Part shown: one piece after another, positions 5,148 through 14,241 of the stretch
How the letters are laid out: each line of letters begins with the position of its first letter
Position numbering within the stretch: position 1 is the stretch's first letter
DNA from: Candidatus Altarchaeum sp.
GTDB lineage: Archaea; Altiarchaeota; Altiarchaeia; Altiarchaeales; Altiarchaeaceae
DNA length: 14,427 nucleotides
NCBI GenBank assembly: GCA_018260615.1
Contig: JAGWDQ010000015.1
Coordinates: 1-14,427, forward strand
Direction of reading: 5' to 3'
Made by a program: the position numbers and the translations under genes
Notes under the pieces: model-generated
Seen by the model: only the letters and a program-made list of their open reading frames with translations
The model's database searches: none
Told to the model about the DNA's origin: nothing

Positions 5148-5243
5148 AACTCGCCTGAAATAAAAAAATTTATTCGTGAAAATATTTCGCTGTTTTTGGG
5201 AATCAAAGAACAGGAAAGAAATTTTAAAAAAGAAAATGAGTAA
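4902..5243 (+). CDS. Repeat-derived ORF, (MTSLRSDILEFSVNFK)x5 plus 33-aa tail; may not be translated
   Basis: ATG overlaps the aminotransferase TGA (ATGA); TAA overlaps the DUF1016 start by 8 bp. No family recognised. Confidence 0.25.
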   Translation: MTSLRSDILEFSVNFKMTSLRSDILEFSVNFKMTSLRSDILEFSVNFKMTSLRSDILEFSVNFKMTSLRSDILEFSVNFKMTNSPEIKKFIRENISLFLGIKEQERNFKKENE

Positions 5244-6282
5244 AACCAAAACACTCGCATCTCAGAATTACGACAGGATATTAGAAAATATTATAGAGCA
5301 TATTGAGCAGTCAAAATTCAGGGCATTTTCTGAAGTAAACAAAGCTCTTTTGCAGGCATATTGGAACATTGGAAAAGAACTCAATGAAAACGCGGCTTAT
5401 GGAAAATCAGTAGTAGAAAAACTTTCCATGGATTTGAGGTTAAGATACCCTGATGTGAGGGGATATTCAGAAAGAAACCTGTGGAATATGAAGCAATTTT
5501 ACGAGACCTATGAGAAACTGCAGCCAGTGGTTGCAGAATTGCTTTTCAAGATATCATGGACTAATCATGTAATTATTTTAAACAAAACCAGTTCTAACGA
5601 GGAAAAACAGTTTTATGTGGAACTATGCGTTAAAGAAAAATGGAGTAAGAGAGAACTGGACCGGCAGATTGATTCCTCTTTATTTGAGAGATACATGCTT
5701 GCTGATAAGCCGGAAAGAGTGACTGCTTTAATACCAAAACATGAATCAACAGATGTTGCCAAACACTTTAAGGACGAATATATGATGGAGTTTCTGAATA
5801 TGAAAAAGGATTACTCCGAACAGGAACTGGAAAAGGCCATTCTGGATAACCTGAGAGATTTCTTTTTGGAATTCGGCAGATCTTTCACTTTCGTCGGCTC
5901 GCAGTATGCCATTGATATAGGTGGCAGGGAAAACCGGATTGACTTGTTATTCTTTCACAGAGAACTAAAATGTTTAGTAGCAGTTGACCTAAAAATTGAT
6001 GAGTTTAAAGCAGATTATGTTGGCCAGATGCAGAAATATCTGGCTGCACTGGATGAAAAAATACGACTTCCTGATGAAAAAGAAAGTGTTGGCTTAATAC
6101 TCTGCAAATCCAAAAATCACGAAGAGGTCTGGTTTGCTCTTGCTAAATCATTATCTCCTATCAAAGTGGCAACCTATAAAACAAAACTGCCTGACAAAAA
6201 TCTCATACTCAAAAGATTGAAACAATTTCGTATTAACAATGAATCCGAAAGTAACAGGAAAGAAAAAACAAAACTAAATTAA
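5236..6282 (+). CDS. YhcG/DUF1016 family PD-(D/E)XK nuclease-domain protein
   Basis: [83 protein letters not shown]. Start placed at ATG 5236, not GTG 5176. Confidence 0.93.
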
Positions 6283-10389: not shown

Positions 10390-10875
10390 TTAAATTTCTT
10401 CTTTCACACAATATTTTTTCCAAATTTCCTCCATGTCCTCTTTCAAAATCTCAGCAAAATGTGGTGCATTAAAACAAATCCTGTTTTTTATGTTTTCAGA
10501 TGTTGTTTCATTCATATCATAGGGATGCGAATCTTCTATTCTTATGTGTTTATCGTCAATTATCATTATATGTCTTATCTTTTCTGTGCTTCTTTTAATC
10601 TCAATCTTTCCATTCTTTATTTCATCTTTCATCCAATCCACTGGCTTTCCCCCGTCTTTATCTATGACTATTCTGAGTTTCACACCTGTATATATTGCTT
10701 TCTCAATACTTGTTTTAATACCTCCCTCATTATAAAAACCTGAGTAAAGTCCCGTTGACATAAAGACATCTTTTTTTGCTAAAGAAAAAATTTTTGGTAT
10801 CTCATTTTTAAAATCCTTTGCTAAAACATCCTTTCCATAAGGAAGCCCCAGAACACGACGAATATTTACAATCAT
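10390..10875 (-). CDS. PLD-fold (phospholipase D/TrmB-like) domain protein with degenerate HKD motif
   Basis: SLAKKDVFMST, IEKAIYTGVKLRIVID, KIEIKR, RHIMIIDD (HxK-type Lys replaced), FNAPHFAEILKEDMEEIW follow the PLD single-domain pattern. Confidence 0.75.
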   Translation of the reverse strand: MIVNIRRVLGLPYGKDVLAKDFKNEIPKIFSLAKKDVFMSTGLYSGFYNEGGIKTSIEKAIYTGVKLRIVIDKDGGKPVDWMKDEIKNGKIEIKRSTEKIRHIMIIDDKHIRIEDSHPYDMNETTSENIKNRICFNAPHFAEILKEDMEEIWKKYCVKEEI

Positions 10876-13790
10876 TTTTGTTGAATTTTTTCATATCTCT
10901 TTACCTTTACTTTATTTTCTTCTGCCTTCTTTGCTGTTTCATCATTAGCAGTTAATAGGTCAACATTCAATTGTTTTGCTCTTGCAACATGCTCATCACC
11001 GCATTCTTTTAAGTAATTTTCACCTTTTTCATCTAAATCCGCAAATTCAAATTTATTCTTTATTTTATCTCCTATGTCCATTCCATGTATTTGGCCATAT
11101 ATCTTTTTTGAGACATAAATTTTGCTATATTTACATGATATGTTTTCAAGTTGTCCTTCTTTAATTGCTTTATTTACGGATTCTTCGTCTGCATAAATTT
11201 TCTTCTTTCTCAATAAGAGGAAAAGCAAAAGTGCTATCAATACCAGTAATAATAACAATATCCAGCAGGGCAATCCAAAGAATACACATGGACAATCTTT
11301 ACACTTTGCTGTTCCTTCAATACATCCGCATTTACAGGATGTAGGACATAAGGTTATAATCTCTTTTTGTACAACTTCGGTTTCTGCACTTGAAGATCCA
11401 TAAAAGTCCTTTGTTGCTAAAAAATTAATTTTGCCCGCATTCTCTGCAGGGAGTGAAATTTTACCATTTTCATCACTTATTTTTGTTAATTCAGTTCCAT
11501 TAGACAATGTTATCACAATAGTTGCATTTTTAATTAAAGTCCCGTTTTCATCTGTAACATTACATATTATTGTTTCATTTACATAAACACTTTTCGGACA
11601 CAAAATATTTAATTTTACCAAAAATATATTTCCTAAAAAGGTTGCATTACTATAACAACCTTTATGTGCTTTTATGTCAAATCTTCCGCTTACCCCATCA
11701 GAATTAAATTTAATCGTGCCATCTGAGGACATATAAGAAAATGTTTTATTTGGCAATGTAACATTCACAAAAACATCTTTAATTAAATTTCCATTATCAT
11801 CTTTAATTAAATATATTAAATCCTGCGTTGTTTTTACCTCGGATAATCCTTCTATATGCAAGTTGCCATAAGTTGTTGTTATTGTTTTGCTGTATTCATT
11901 TCCACAAACTCCTTTTGGAATAGTTATTGTATAAATTCCGCATCCAAACTGATAGCAAATTTCGCCATTTGCATTTGTGCTGGCATTAATATTGCTGCCG
12001 TCAGAAAGTGTCAATAATATATTTGCTGCGCTTGGCACATTTTTTGTAATGCCTGTTGTTAATTTTCCATCCTGATAGGTATTTGTTGTACATTCTATTT
12101 TAAAACAACGACTTCCGGGGGTTGTTGTATCCGAAATGTTTGTTGAAATTTGTTGTGTTGTTGTTACTTCTCCAACGGGAATTCCCTGATATTGTTGCGG
12201 ACCGCATGTTGTGCAACTTCCTCCGGTGCTAACTGTAGTTACAGCAGTGCCAACATTTACTGTTACAGTTGCACCCGAAATTCCGGGAGTTCCAAATCTA
12301 TAAGTTGTTACTCCGAACATTGCTGTTACAGTTGCTATGTTTGTTTCTGTTGATGTTAATGTTTTTGTGCAGTTGCAGAGCATTGAGTCCCCAACGGAAA
12401 GATAATTATTCGGACAAATCACCAGAGAACATTTATTATCGCTGACAGTAATATTACTTAAAGGAACATTTCCAGTATTTTTTATAGTATAATAATAAGT
12501 TACGTTTCCTCCGCCTGCCGGTAATGAATAATTACTTGCGGTTTTGCTTAAAATTATGCCTGGTGCAGGTGTAGCACTCACAATTACTTCTGCCTTAGTG
12601 CATCTGAATATTCCGGCATTTTCATTCTGGAGTGTAGCATAAACACATGCTTCGTTAGTAGTATTTGCCTTTAAAAATGCGGTTGCGTTACAGGAATATG
12701 ACGCCTCTGCTGTAAGATTGGGAATATTACATATTGTCCCAAGTTTGTCGTCTTTTATAGTTAAATCAGTTAAATTAATACAGCCATTATTTGTTACATT
12801 GTAAGTATAGGTTACATATCCTGGAGCTGATAAATTTGTTGCATTTGGTGTTTTGACAATGGATATATTTGCATAACATCCACCACAATAACTTGCACAC
12901 ACTTTAAAGCATAAACATCCCAAATCACTAATATTTACCTGCTCGTTGCCAATATAATCGCCATTTACATAAGTTCTCGAATTATTTACAGTTATATTGA
13001 AAATTTTGCAATCTTTACAGCATCCATAAGGAGTTGCAAGTAAGATAGTTCCTTGGGCAAGGATGTTATTATTAATAGTTGCATTAATTACATGTGCACC
13101 CTGTGGAAGCGTTGAATTTATAATATTTGAGTTCATAACACTATTATTTTGTAAAGTGCTGCCAGATATGTCTGAATTATTAACATTTGAACCAATTACA
13201 TTTGAATTGCTGACATTTGAATATCTGACTATTGAGTCATTTATTGTTGAATTTTCAATATAAGAACCTATTATTGTCGAATTTGAGATATTTGAATTTA
13301 AAATTTTATTAACATTAAAATATCCTGTGTTATTAGCATTTTTCCCCCCAGCACTCATACTAACTTTTATATTATACTTTCCGGCATTCCAATTATTAGG
13401 TATTTGCCAGAATATCACATAATAATAAGTATTATTACCTCCATATTGGTAGCAGTCATAATACTTTTGGGTTAATGTAACATTAATATTATGTCCACCA
13501 CAACTACGATTAATATAAATTCCAAAATCAGTTGGCAAAGAACAAGATAATGAATTTCCATCCGTTATGCTAAAATTTACAGAATCTAATAAACAATATC
13601 CCACTTCATCTACAATACTAATATTAAATTCAATTTTTACAACATCGCCCGCATTATATGTCTGATTATCCGTTATTATTGAAGATACCGAAACATCTGC
13701 CAGTGCGATATTTAAAATCAATATTGCGAATATAAGACCAAAAATTACACCTAAATTTTTTCCGTTTCTTAAAATTTTTATACTTTTCAT
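10872..13790 (-). CDS. Large single-pass surface glycoprotein: signal peptide, pentapeptide repeats, two DUF7507/DUF11-like domains, Ig-like domains, Cys-rich stalk, TM helix, cytoplasmic PIN-like domain
   Basis: Signal peptide ending ALA; about 40 N-x-S/T sequons (hand count) before the TM; VTYTYNVTNNG and VTYYYTIKNTGNVPLSNITVSD repeats; poly-Leu TM followed by RKKK; 108-aa tail with PIN-like pattern. Confidence 0.85.
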   Translation of the reverse strand: MKSIKILRNGKNLGVIFGLIFAILILNIALADVSVSSIITDNQTYNAGDVVKIEFNISIVDEVGYCLLDSVNFSITDGNSLSCSLPTDFGIYINRSCGGHNINVTLTQKYYDCYQYGGNNTYYYVIFWQIPNNWNAGKYNIKVSMSAGGKNANNTGYFNVNKILNSNISNSTIIGSYIENSTINDSIVRYSNVSNSNVIGSNVNNSDISGSTLQNNSVMNSNIINSTLPQGAHVINATINNNILAQGTILLATPYGCCKDCKIFNITVNNSRTYVNGDYIGNEQVNISDLGCLCFKVCASYCGGCYANISIVKTPNATNLSAPGYVTYTYNVTNNGCINLTDLTIKDDKLGTICNIPNLTAEASYSCNATAFLKANTTNEACVYATLQNENAGIFRCTKAEVIVSATPAPGIILSKTASNYSLPAGGGNVTYYYTIKNTGNVPLSNITVSDNKCSLVICPNNYLSVGDSMLCNCTKTLTSTETNIATVTAMFGVTTYRFGTPGISGATVTVNVGTAVTTVSTGGSCTTCGPQQYQGIPVGEVTTTQQISTNISDTTTPGSRCFKIECTTNTYQDGKLTTGITKNVPSAANILLTLSDGSNINASTNANGEICYQFGCGIYTITIPKGVCGNEYSKTITTTYGNLHIEGLSEVKTTQDLIYLIKDDNGNLIKDVFVNVTLPNKTFSYMSSDGTIKFNSDGVSGRFDIKAHKGCYSNATFLGNIFLVKLNILCPKSVYVNETIICNVTDENGTLIKNATIVITLSNGTELTKISDENGKISLPAENAGKINFLATKDFYGSSSAETEVVQKEIITLCPTSCKCGCIEGTAKCKDCPCVFFGLPCWILLLLLVLIALLLFLLLRKKKIYADEESVNKAIKEGQLENISCKYSKIYVSKKIYGQIHGMDIGDKIKNKFEFADLDEKGENYLKECGDEHVARAKQLNVDLLTANDETAKKAEENKVKVKRYEKIQQK

Positions 13791-13831: not shown

Positions 13832-14116
13832 TCACAAAATGACGATAATCTTATAAAGAATTATTGATACGAATGAATAAATCAAAGGGATTATAAATAT
13901 TGTTGATGAACTAAGAAACGATGAAAGAACTCTCTGGGTTTTCGGAGATGAATTTTTTACATCTTCCTTTGCACACATTAAAATATCCCTGATAATCAAC
14001 AAGACAATTAGTCCTATAATTGCAAAAATTCCTATTGATATAATATTTGCCCCGACTGCCGCAGTTGTTGTTGTGGTAGTAGTTATTGCAGTTGTGGTTG
14101 TAACTGTTGTAATCAT
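13832..14116 (-). CDS. Small two-TM membrane protein with N-terminal poly-Thr tract
   Basis: MITTVTTTTAITTTTTTTAAVG (13 Thr in the first 18 aa) then two hydrophobic helices. Start placed at ATG 14116 because GTG 14152 lies inside the MITE. Confidence 0.8.
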   Translation of the reverse strand: MITTVTTTTAITTTTTTTAAVGANIISIGIFAIIGLIVLLIIRDILMCAKEDVKNSSPKTQRVLSSFLSSSTIFIIPLIYSFVSIILYKIIVIL

Positions 14117-14140
14117 TGTTATAACAATAAATAAATAAAG

Positions 14141-14241
14141 GTAACTACTCACAGGTTAACAAAATTTACCTATAAAACTTTCAAAAAAATACGAAAAATC
14201 AAAAAATTTACCTGTAATTTTTTGGGAGGGTGAGTAGTTAC
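14141..14241. mobile_element. 101-bp MITE with IS66-type ends
   Basis: Perfect 12-bp terminal inverted repeats GTAACTACTCAC (14141-14152) and GTGAGTAGTTAC (14230-14241); 8-bp direct repeat AAATAAAG at 14133-14140 and 14242-14249; no ORF. Confidence 0.85.

Follow-up and report, generated by a model that had tools for sequence, protein, structure and literature searches.

A predicted PIN-like domain at the cytoplasmic end of adhesin-type surface glycoproteins of the Altiarchaeota

The largest open reading frame (ORF; 10872..13790, minus strand) in a 14,427-nucleotide stretch of DNA from Candidatus Altarchaeum sp. (positions 1 to 14,427 of contig JAGWDQ010000015.1, assembly GCA_018260615.1; hereafter, the window) encodes a 972-residue protein which is very probably a Sec-exported, N-glycosylated and disulfide-rich type I membrane protein whose last ~110 residues, starting 2-3 residues past the transmembrane helix, form a PIN-like alpha/beta domain on the cytoplasmic face. 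We assign this C-terminal tail with high confidence to a new, unannotated family of the VapC-like group within the PIN-like superfamily. The transmembrane helix, the KKK motif and the PIN-like domain in all likelihood make up a portable cassette, known so far only from Altiarchaeota, which is carried behind interchangeable adhesin-type ectodomains. Known PIN domains serve as soluble toxins or RNA-processing enzymes, or follow a multi-pass anchor at the N-terminus, and the Altiarchaeota are abundant, uncultivated primary producers of the subsurface whose double membrane is unusual and whose surface structures are elaborate. Here, we present the evidence for the fold, the topology and the distribution of the tail, and weigh whether it is more readily understood as a binding module or as a nuclease.

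An AlphaFold2 (AF2) model of the tail, spanning residues 862-972 and built from a 17-sequence alignment, reached a predicted local distance difference test (pLDDT) score of 92.4 and a predicted TM-score (pTM) of 0.82. Its elements follow the order b-a-a-b-a-a-b-a-a-b-a-b, and K863 and K864 are already part of strand 1. As modeled, the tail would have the three-layer alpha/beta/alpha architecture, with a parallel sheet of strands S1-S5 and a crossover helix before S4, by which the PIN-like superfamily is defined (Matelska et al. 2017, PMC5499597). When the model was compared with the Protein Data Bank (PDB) by Foldseek, the first 43 of the 50 matches listed were all PIN proteins, among them PAE2754, AF0591, VapCs, SSO1118, HARP and Nob1, with 1y82 as the best match (TMq 0.70). 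A comparison by VIA-align with 48,161 PDB representative chains returned PIN proteins at all of ranks 1-26 (Z 9.8-6.8), the first non-PIN entries (HAD) appearing only from Z 6.8, and the neighbors of the tail in the ESM Atlas are PIN, DUF3368 and PIN-TRAM clusters (TM-score 0.68-0.77). A sister subfamily of ~540-residue proteins was modeled with a pLDDT of 93.5, and its top 38 structure matches are again all PIN proteins, including SSO1118 (2mdt) at Z 13.2 and Nob1 at Z 12.0. A preliminary description of the window, made from the letters alone, had recognized a PIN-like motif by eye and had named structure prediction as its check; the prediction returned a PIN fold whose 26 nearest neighbors are all PIN proteins, rather than a non-PIN fold.

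At the level of sequence, the links between the tail profile and true PIN domains are weak but consistent. Among PDB sequences, the profile matches 2mdt best (E-value, E, of 0.064), over the half that contains ...LA.QL.A.LLT...A..., and it also matches an Altiarchaeota PIN-TRAM protein at E 1.8e-4, a protein that Pfam in turn identifies by PF01850 (E 2.9e-9) and TRAM (E 9.6e-8). Aligned by hhalign with 19 canonical PINs from the same genome, the profile scored 19.4 over 67 columns in the correct register, compared with a highest score of 11.4 among 30 column-shuffled profiles, so that the motif first seen by eye stands above chance. Scans of the tail with Pfam and NCBIfam gave no model above threshold and no PIN-clan match (PF01850, PF13638, PF11848 and others), and the best Pfam PIN-clan match among the 17 members was PIN_4 at E 0.0012, for one sequence; because no model in either library reaches threshold, the family is new at the sequence level. 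One further profile match in the same genome, on contig C135 (E 3.8e-4), lies inside FG-GAP/VCBS-like repeats (DLNNDGKKEI) of a giant protein and was dismissed as a chance match. This genome (a 2.2-Mb assembly) is very rich in ordinary VapC-type PIN genes, with 24 PF01850 matches at E <= 0.001, at least 22 of which lie above the family cut-off; one of these genes (C87:13908-14228) lies within a 518-codon frame. The PF01850 proteins of the genome are clearly distinct from the tail.

The nearest relatives of the tail are, with little doubt, the minimal PIN SSO1118 (COG2405/DUF3368), Nob1 and the PIN-TRAM proteins. SSO1118 of Sulfolobus solfataricus (PDB 2mdt; PF11848) has the same fold and nearly the same size as the tail; its 103 residues make it the shortest PIN in which every core element is present (PMC5499597). 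It aligns by VIA-align at Z 9.2 with the tail itself, and its group, like the tail family, has members with incomplete active sites. SSO1118-type proteins are, however, small and soluble and occur mostly in toxin-antitoxin-like pairs, whereas the tail is fused behind a transmembrane helix and has no partner gene. The VapC toxins (PF01850; 1y82, 5sv2, 6sd6) share the alpha/beta/alpha PIN fold (Z 9-10), as well as an Asp after strand 1, a candidate acid where the helix leading to strand 4 begins, and a Thr that ends strand 4. Unlike VapC, the tail lacks the Glu after strand 2, has no VapB antitoxin and is tethered to the membrane, and identity amounts to about 10-14%. Tethering to the cytoplasmic face of a membrane has a precedent in the integral membrane PIN-TRAM proteins (COG4956, YacL type; 3ix7, 3i8o; ESM Atlas cluster at TM-score 0.68), which possess four N-terminal transmembrane helices, a TRAM RNA-binding domain and a canonical PIN, and lack an ectodomain (PMC5499597). 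The 972-residue protein instead has one transmembrane helix, a PIN-like domain at its extreme C-terminus and an 800-residue ectodomain predicted to be glycosylated. We found no paper that links Altiarchaeota and PIN domains, nor any that describes a PIN tail on type I surface glycoproteins; the preliminary suggestion that this architecture is not a described system therefore holds for the searchable papers, though membrane-tethered PINs as such are known (COG4956, PMC5499597).

The predicted topology of the protein is supported by several features of its sequence. A hydropathy scan detects only two hydrophobic segments, the core of a signal peptide (~13-31) and a Leu-rich transmembrane segment (836-860), and the protein combines the features of a type I single-pass glycoprotein: a cleavable signal peptide, one stop-transfer helix, a positive-inside flank, and a signature of N-x-S/T sequons and Cys concentrated on the N-terminal side. 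Forty-one sequons precede the transmembrane helix, against 19.2 +/- 3.8 expected for shuffled composition, and one (N883) lies in the tail; the corresponding Cys counts are 38 and 2. The asymmetry is general, since among 30 family members the ectodomains average 2.69 sequons and 6.66 Cys per 100 residues vs 0.21 and 0.51 for the tails. The preliminary description had placed a 108-residue tail at 10872-11198, behind the transmembrane helix and RKKK, with about 40 sequons before the helix and one after it, and had put the tail inside the cell. Its coordinates are exact, all of the peptides it quoted are present, and its sequon estimate is close to the count. An N-out, C-in orientation with a cytoplasmic tail is supported by the positive-inside rule, by the asymmetry of sequons and Cys, and by a relative with two tandem tails. 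Of the two membranes that surround Altiarchaeum (PMC4460559), the inner one would presumably be that into which the protein is inserted.

The same cassette recurs behind different types of ectodomain, which include DUF11/DUF7507, CARDB, NosD/beta-helix, SdrD_B and CarboxypepD_reg domains, and every member that is taxonomically placed or named belongs to the Altiarchaeota. At least four tail genes are present in the genome of the window, on the contig of the window (C15) and on contigs C68, C133 and C1. The tail of the C68 paralogue is about 82-83% identical to that of the 972-residue protein, while the C133 copy combines a tail of 38% identity with a different ectodomain. On contig C1, a 3343-codon frame ends in a transmembrane helix and a divergent tail (VVVDDE ... 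GNDVLAYA ...; L058:1501-1803, plus strand), so that the cassette is found in giant surface proteins as well. Matches to a profile built from 17 tails occur in 12 of 61 Altiarchaeota genomes, among them the well-populated ~540-residue subfamily and a group with NosD/beta-helix or CARDB ectodomains. In a search of 1.84 billion protein cluster representatives, 13 tail matches were recovered; in the full-length proteins the tail stands at the extreme C-terminus, directly after a Leu-rich helix and (R/K)KKK, and the two shortest matches are fragments. One relative (P0010; also L041, genome G060 contig C234) carries two tandem tails, at residues 656-764 and 768-876, each of which follows KKKK, an arrangement that suggests a dimer as the working unit.

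The cassette is under purifying selection. Between the 972-residue protein and its C68 paralogue, the transmembrane helix is 93% and the tail 83% identical while the ectodomain ranges from 37 to 76%, and the ratio of nonsynonymous to synonymous substitution rates (dN/dS) in the tail is 0.17-0.30. A search for soluble, stand-alone relatives returned only truncated gene calls, fragments or short forms made of a transmembrane helix and tail. In a genome of a sister genus (G003 contig C50, L006:1489-1914, minus strand), at the locus syntenic with the window, the family is represented by a 141-codon stop-to-stop frame that comprises a transmembrane helix, KKRK and a tail with no ectodomain. This frame is either a minimal membrane-anchored version or what is left of a truncated gene; the contig ends 160 nucleotides upstream. 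Members are currently named "hypothetical", "DUF7507 domain-containing" or "LPXTG-anchored". Near-identical proteins from a groundwater metagenome bear MSIBF_ locus tags, the series assigned to Candidatus Altiarchaeum hamiconexum (PMC4460559), and a more distant member is named Candidatus Altiarchaeales. A search for sequencing runs listed two, both of DNA and both from one groundwater study, and none of RNA. The subunit of the hamus, the grappling hook of these archaea, was considered as a possible identity and ruled out, as it is described as soluble and with an N-terminal helix only (PMC4460559).

Whether the tail could act as a nuclease depends on its candidate active site. Among PINs, three acids are near-invariant, one following S1, one at the start of H4 and one following S4, and a fourth is usually found after S2 (Matelska et al. 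2017, PMC5499597). In the tail, D868 directly follows the strand at 864-867 of the model, where the S1 Asp is expected; in the 24 sequences outside the ~540-residue subfamily that reach this column it is Asp, with the exception of one Glu, and within that subfamily it is A/S/T. D932-E933 stand immediately before the model helix at 933-940 that precedes strand 4, and subfamilies A and B conserve D932 to at least 90%; in the hhalign register D932 lies one column past the canonical PIN Asp, and the H4 acid occupies tail position 70, 71 or 72 depending on the subfamily. Strand 4 leads into T947-A-N949-D950-E951, with T947 at least 90% conserved in the 17-sequence alignment, and in relatives the post-strand-4 acid is found at T+1, T+2, T+3 or T+4. 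The fourth acid is missing: hhalign alignments place Gln900 on the usual column of the catalytic Glu, a column occupied by Q/K/N/D/E/R in relatives, and a Ser/Thr at 894 is conserved instead. This picture, drawn from the secondary structure of the model and the hhalign register, agrees with the earlier reading by eye of acids kept at YAD, GD and ND and of a Glu replaced by Gln, and a metal site of three carboxylates (D868, D932/E933, D950/E951) could exist in the 972-residue protein.

Across the family, subfamilies A and B and the beta-helix group retain both D868 and D932, whereas the two are changed jointly in one protein, P0013 (to E and N), and in the ~540-residue subfamily (to A/S/T and A), which still has acids at a distance of 1-2 positions (D/E at tail position 9, E at position 72). 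The best-conserved tail residues overall are K887, Y892, Y898, L919, G923, D932, A938, Q940, T947 and A956, the majority of them non-catalytic, and those best kept across all subfamilies are K887, Y898, G923, the A-K-Q-L helix at 938-941 and A956, rather than the catalytic ones. D868 and D932 are also helix N-cap positions and their S/T/N replacements are N-cap-compatible, and conservation at these two positions is thus no proof of catalysis.

From these data we favor, with evenly balanced confidence, the reading that the tail, tethered to the membrane, serves chiefly as a PIN-like binding module and is a pseudo-nuclease or has at most weak nuclease activity. Such a module would keep RNA or a partner from the cytoplasm close to the membrane, under the surface protein, or, alternatively, would let the surface proteins self-associate. 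We favor it because the best-kept residues are non-catalytic, the Glu is missing and the acid after strand 4 wanders; because both canonical Asp columns have been replaced throughout one subfamily that yet keeps the fold; and because no inhibitor was found to go with at least four copies in a genome. The 972-residue protein may nevertheless have residual or regulated Mg2+-dependent RNase activity, since a three-carboxylate metal site could still exist there. Several observations weigh against the binding or pseudo-nuclease reading: D868 and D932 persist in nearly all members outside the one subfamily and change only jointly (in the ~540-residue proteins and P0013), as would those of a working active site; at least 90% of the nearer relatives in the 17-sequence alignment have Thr947 of the "T-x-D" motif; and the Asp-replaced subfamily, with acids 1-2 positions away, may still be active.

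The same evidence can be read, more tentatively, in favor of an active membrane RNase controlled by the ectodomain. The preliminary description had spoken of a receptor-like protein with an intracellular RNase or pseudo-RNase; the architecture it proposed is supported by the present data, and the receptor-like coupling is hypothetical. In such a scheme, a metal-dependent PIN endonuclease would be restrained as a monomer by its tether, and clustering or perturbation of the ectodomains, through adhesion or virus binding, would join the tails and switch on RNA cleavage. The logic would resemble that of IRE1, a type I membrane protein with a lumenal sensor domain and a cytosolic RNase activated by oligomerization, or that of abortive infection, as an analogy only: no shared ancestry is implied, and IRE1 has an unrelated fold (kinase and KEN domain). 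Subfamilies A and B conserve acids that would fill three of the four PIN positions, together with the Thr, the two Asp residues are lost only together, the tail is under purifying selection, and the natural tandem duplication (P0010/L041) fits a dimeric working unit, as in VapC; the ectodomains, moreover, are variable and multi-copy, and Altiarchaeum is reported to be heavily attacked by lytic viruses (PMC8324899). Against catalysis stand the unconserved Glu position (Q/K/N/D/E/R), the unfixed position of the acid after strand 4, the displacement of D932 by one column from the canonical Asp in profile alignments, a whole subfamily without both Asp columns, the lack of an inhibitor or antitoxin gene or any conserved neighbor at the loci compared, and the fact that COG2405, the family of the nearest structural neighbor, which includes 2mdt, is listed with both predicted active and predicted inactive members (PMC5499597). 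The fullest version of this scheme, in which the Altiarchaeota surface proteins would form a family of sensors wired to a cytoplasmic PIN RNase, with contact with a ligand, a surface or a virus clustering the ectodomains, dimerizing the tails and triggering RNA cleavage, we consider unlikely.

The gene neighborhood bears both on catalysis and on a third explanation, that the protein is a polymorphic toxin or contact-dependent inhibition protein whose PIN tail is delivered to neighboring cells, with the downstream ORF providing immunity. A repeat-rich surface protein with a C-terminal nuclease-fold domain is indeed followed by a small ORF of 161 residues that is translationally coupled to it here by an ATGA overlap with the glycoprotein stop. 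This ORF resembles NucT/PLD-like proteins weakly (NCBIfam E 0.016) and has H-x-M instead of H-x-K. The C68 paralogue is followed by an unrelated gene, paralogues of the ORF (on contigs C95 and C125, as well as in one sister genome) never lie beside tail genes, and a sister genome lacks the ORF at its syntenic locus, which consists of UDP-glucose dehydrogenase, CPBP protease and tail genes; a role as a conserved partner or immunity protein was rejected on these grounds. The paralogous and syntenic loci contain no antitoxin (no VapB-like gene), no immunity gene and no other conserved neighbor, and the loci of distant relatives share no neighbor gene. The conserved small adjacent antitoxin gene expected of a VapBC system is likewise not found, the tail being fused to a 972-residue membrane protein whose neighbors differ among loci. 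The usual pattern of a polymorphic toxin is, moreover, reversed, with a conserved tail and variable N-terminal regions, a Leu-rich stop-transfer helix of 25 residues and RKKK stand ahead of the tail, and PIN domains are reported as not used in such toxins (PMC3482391). Given the conserved tail, the variable ectodomains, the stop-transfer helix, the absence of a shared immunity gene and the reported disuse of PINs, we reject this explanation, which we regard as scarcely credible.

A fourth explanation is that the helix, basic residues and tail together serve as a C-terminal sorting or anchoring signal, processed by an archaeosortase-like enzyme or by the neighboring CPBP protease, and that the tail is functionless after maturation. 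One member bears the Joint Genome Institute (JGI) name "LPXTG-motif cell wall-anchored protein", and a CPBP/Rce1-like protease gene lies nearby and abuts the tail gene in a sister genome. Known sorting signals, however, stop a few basic residues past the transmembrane helix, in contrast to the 108-residue, confidently folded domain under purifying selection found here; the tail is tandemly duplicated in one relative, and the flanks examined at C68 and C133 have no CPBP gene. We therefore hold this explanation to be very improbable: a cleaved sorting signal is unlikely because the tail is a folded domain under selection. The member so named, P0020 of the ~540-residue subfamily, probably owes its label to a mis-call from the transmembrane helix and its basic flank.

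The layout of the gene is given in Table 1. The ectodomain starts with an N-terminal domain common to the relatives P0010 and P0016, followed by a pentapeptide-like Asn/Ser repeat (~166-222), two DUF7507 (DUF11-like) domains (best stretch 409-490, by Pfam), a Thr-rich linker, and CarboxypepD_reg-type Ig domains (744-806, by Pfam). All 41 sequons and 31 of the 38 Cys that precede the transmembrane helix fall within it. The Cys-rich stalk between ectodomain and helix is 70% identical in paralogues, and its motif is kept in subfamily A and P0016, while the ~540-residue subfamily has another Cys knot (DCGGxCxxC) at the same juxtamembrane position.

Table 1. Features of the 972-residue glycoprotein gene and the ORF that follows it (positions within the window)
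Feature	Position	Strand	Basis
Start codon and N-terminal signal peptide, residues 1-32 (core 13-31, ALA|DV)	13695..13790	-	hydropathy, translation
Ectodomain, residues 33-814	11349..13694	-	Pfam, sequon/Cys counts, regional identity to paralogues
Cys-rich juxtamembrane stalk, residues 815-835, seven Cys (CPxxCxCGCxEGTxxCxxCPxC)	11286..11348	-	
Single Leu-rich transmembrane helix, residues 836-860	11211..11285	-	hydropathy
Basic stop-transfer RKKK, residues 861-864	11199..11210	-	
Predicted cytoplasmic PIN-like domain, residues 865-972 (108 residues)	10875..11198	-	AF2, structure matches, alignments
Stop codon TGA, overlapping the ATG of the next ORF (ATGA)	10872..10874	-	
Downstream 161-residue ORF	10390..10875	-	

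Two other genes of the window deserve mention. Directly upstream of the glycoprotein gene and on the same strand, positions 13832-14152 (minus strand) encode a 106-residue membrane protein with a poly-Thr tract, for which no family match was found. Farther away, a DUF1016/YhcG PD-(D/E)XK nuclease gene (5176-6282, plus strand) sits between a DegT aminotransferase and a hexapeptide acetyltransferase gene, within a nucleotide-sugar operon that is coherent apart from this gene (aminotransferase, acetyltransferase, Gfo/Idh/MocA oxidoreductase, UDP-glucose/ManNAc dehydrogenase).

A PIN-like domain that forms the common cytoplasmic end of many adhesin-like surface proteins, glycosylated by prediction, is not in the family catalogue, and the tail, as a small (about 110 residues) and, by prediction, well-folding target, represents a new domain family for the libraries. 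If the domain is active, it would provide a direct link from membrane to RNA in an archaeon, and if the sensor-RNase reading were true, a single protein would serve for signaling from the outside to RNA, or as an abortive-infection device, with IRE1-like logic and a VapC-like domain. If it is inactive, a nuclease fold would have been recruited as a membrane-proximal adaptor, which would offer a handle on the inside partners of the surface proteins. The cassette may bear on how the envelope proteins of the Altiarchaeota may be anchored or may signal inward.

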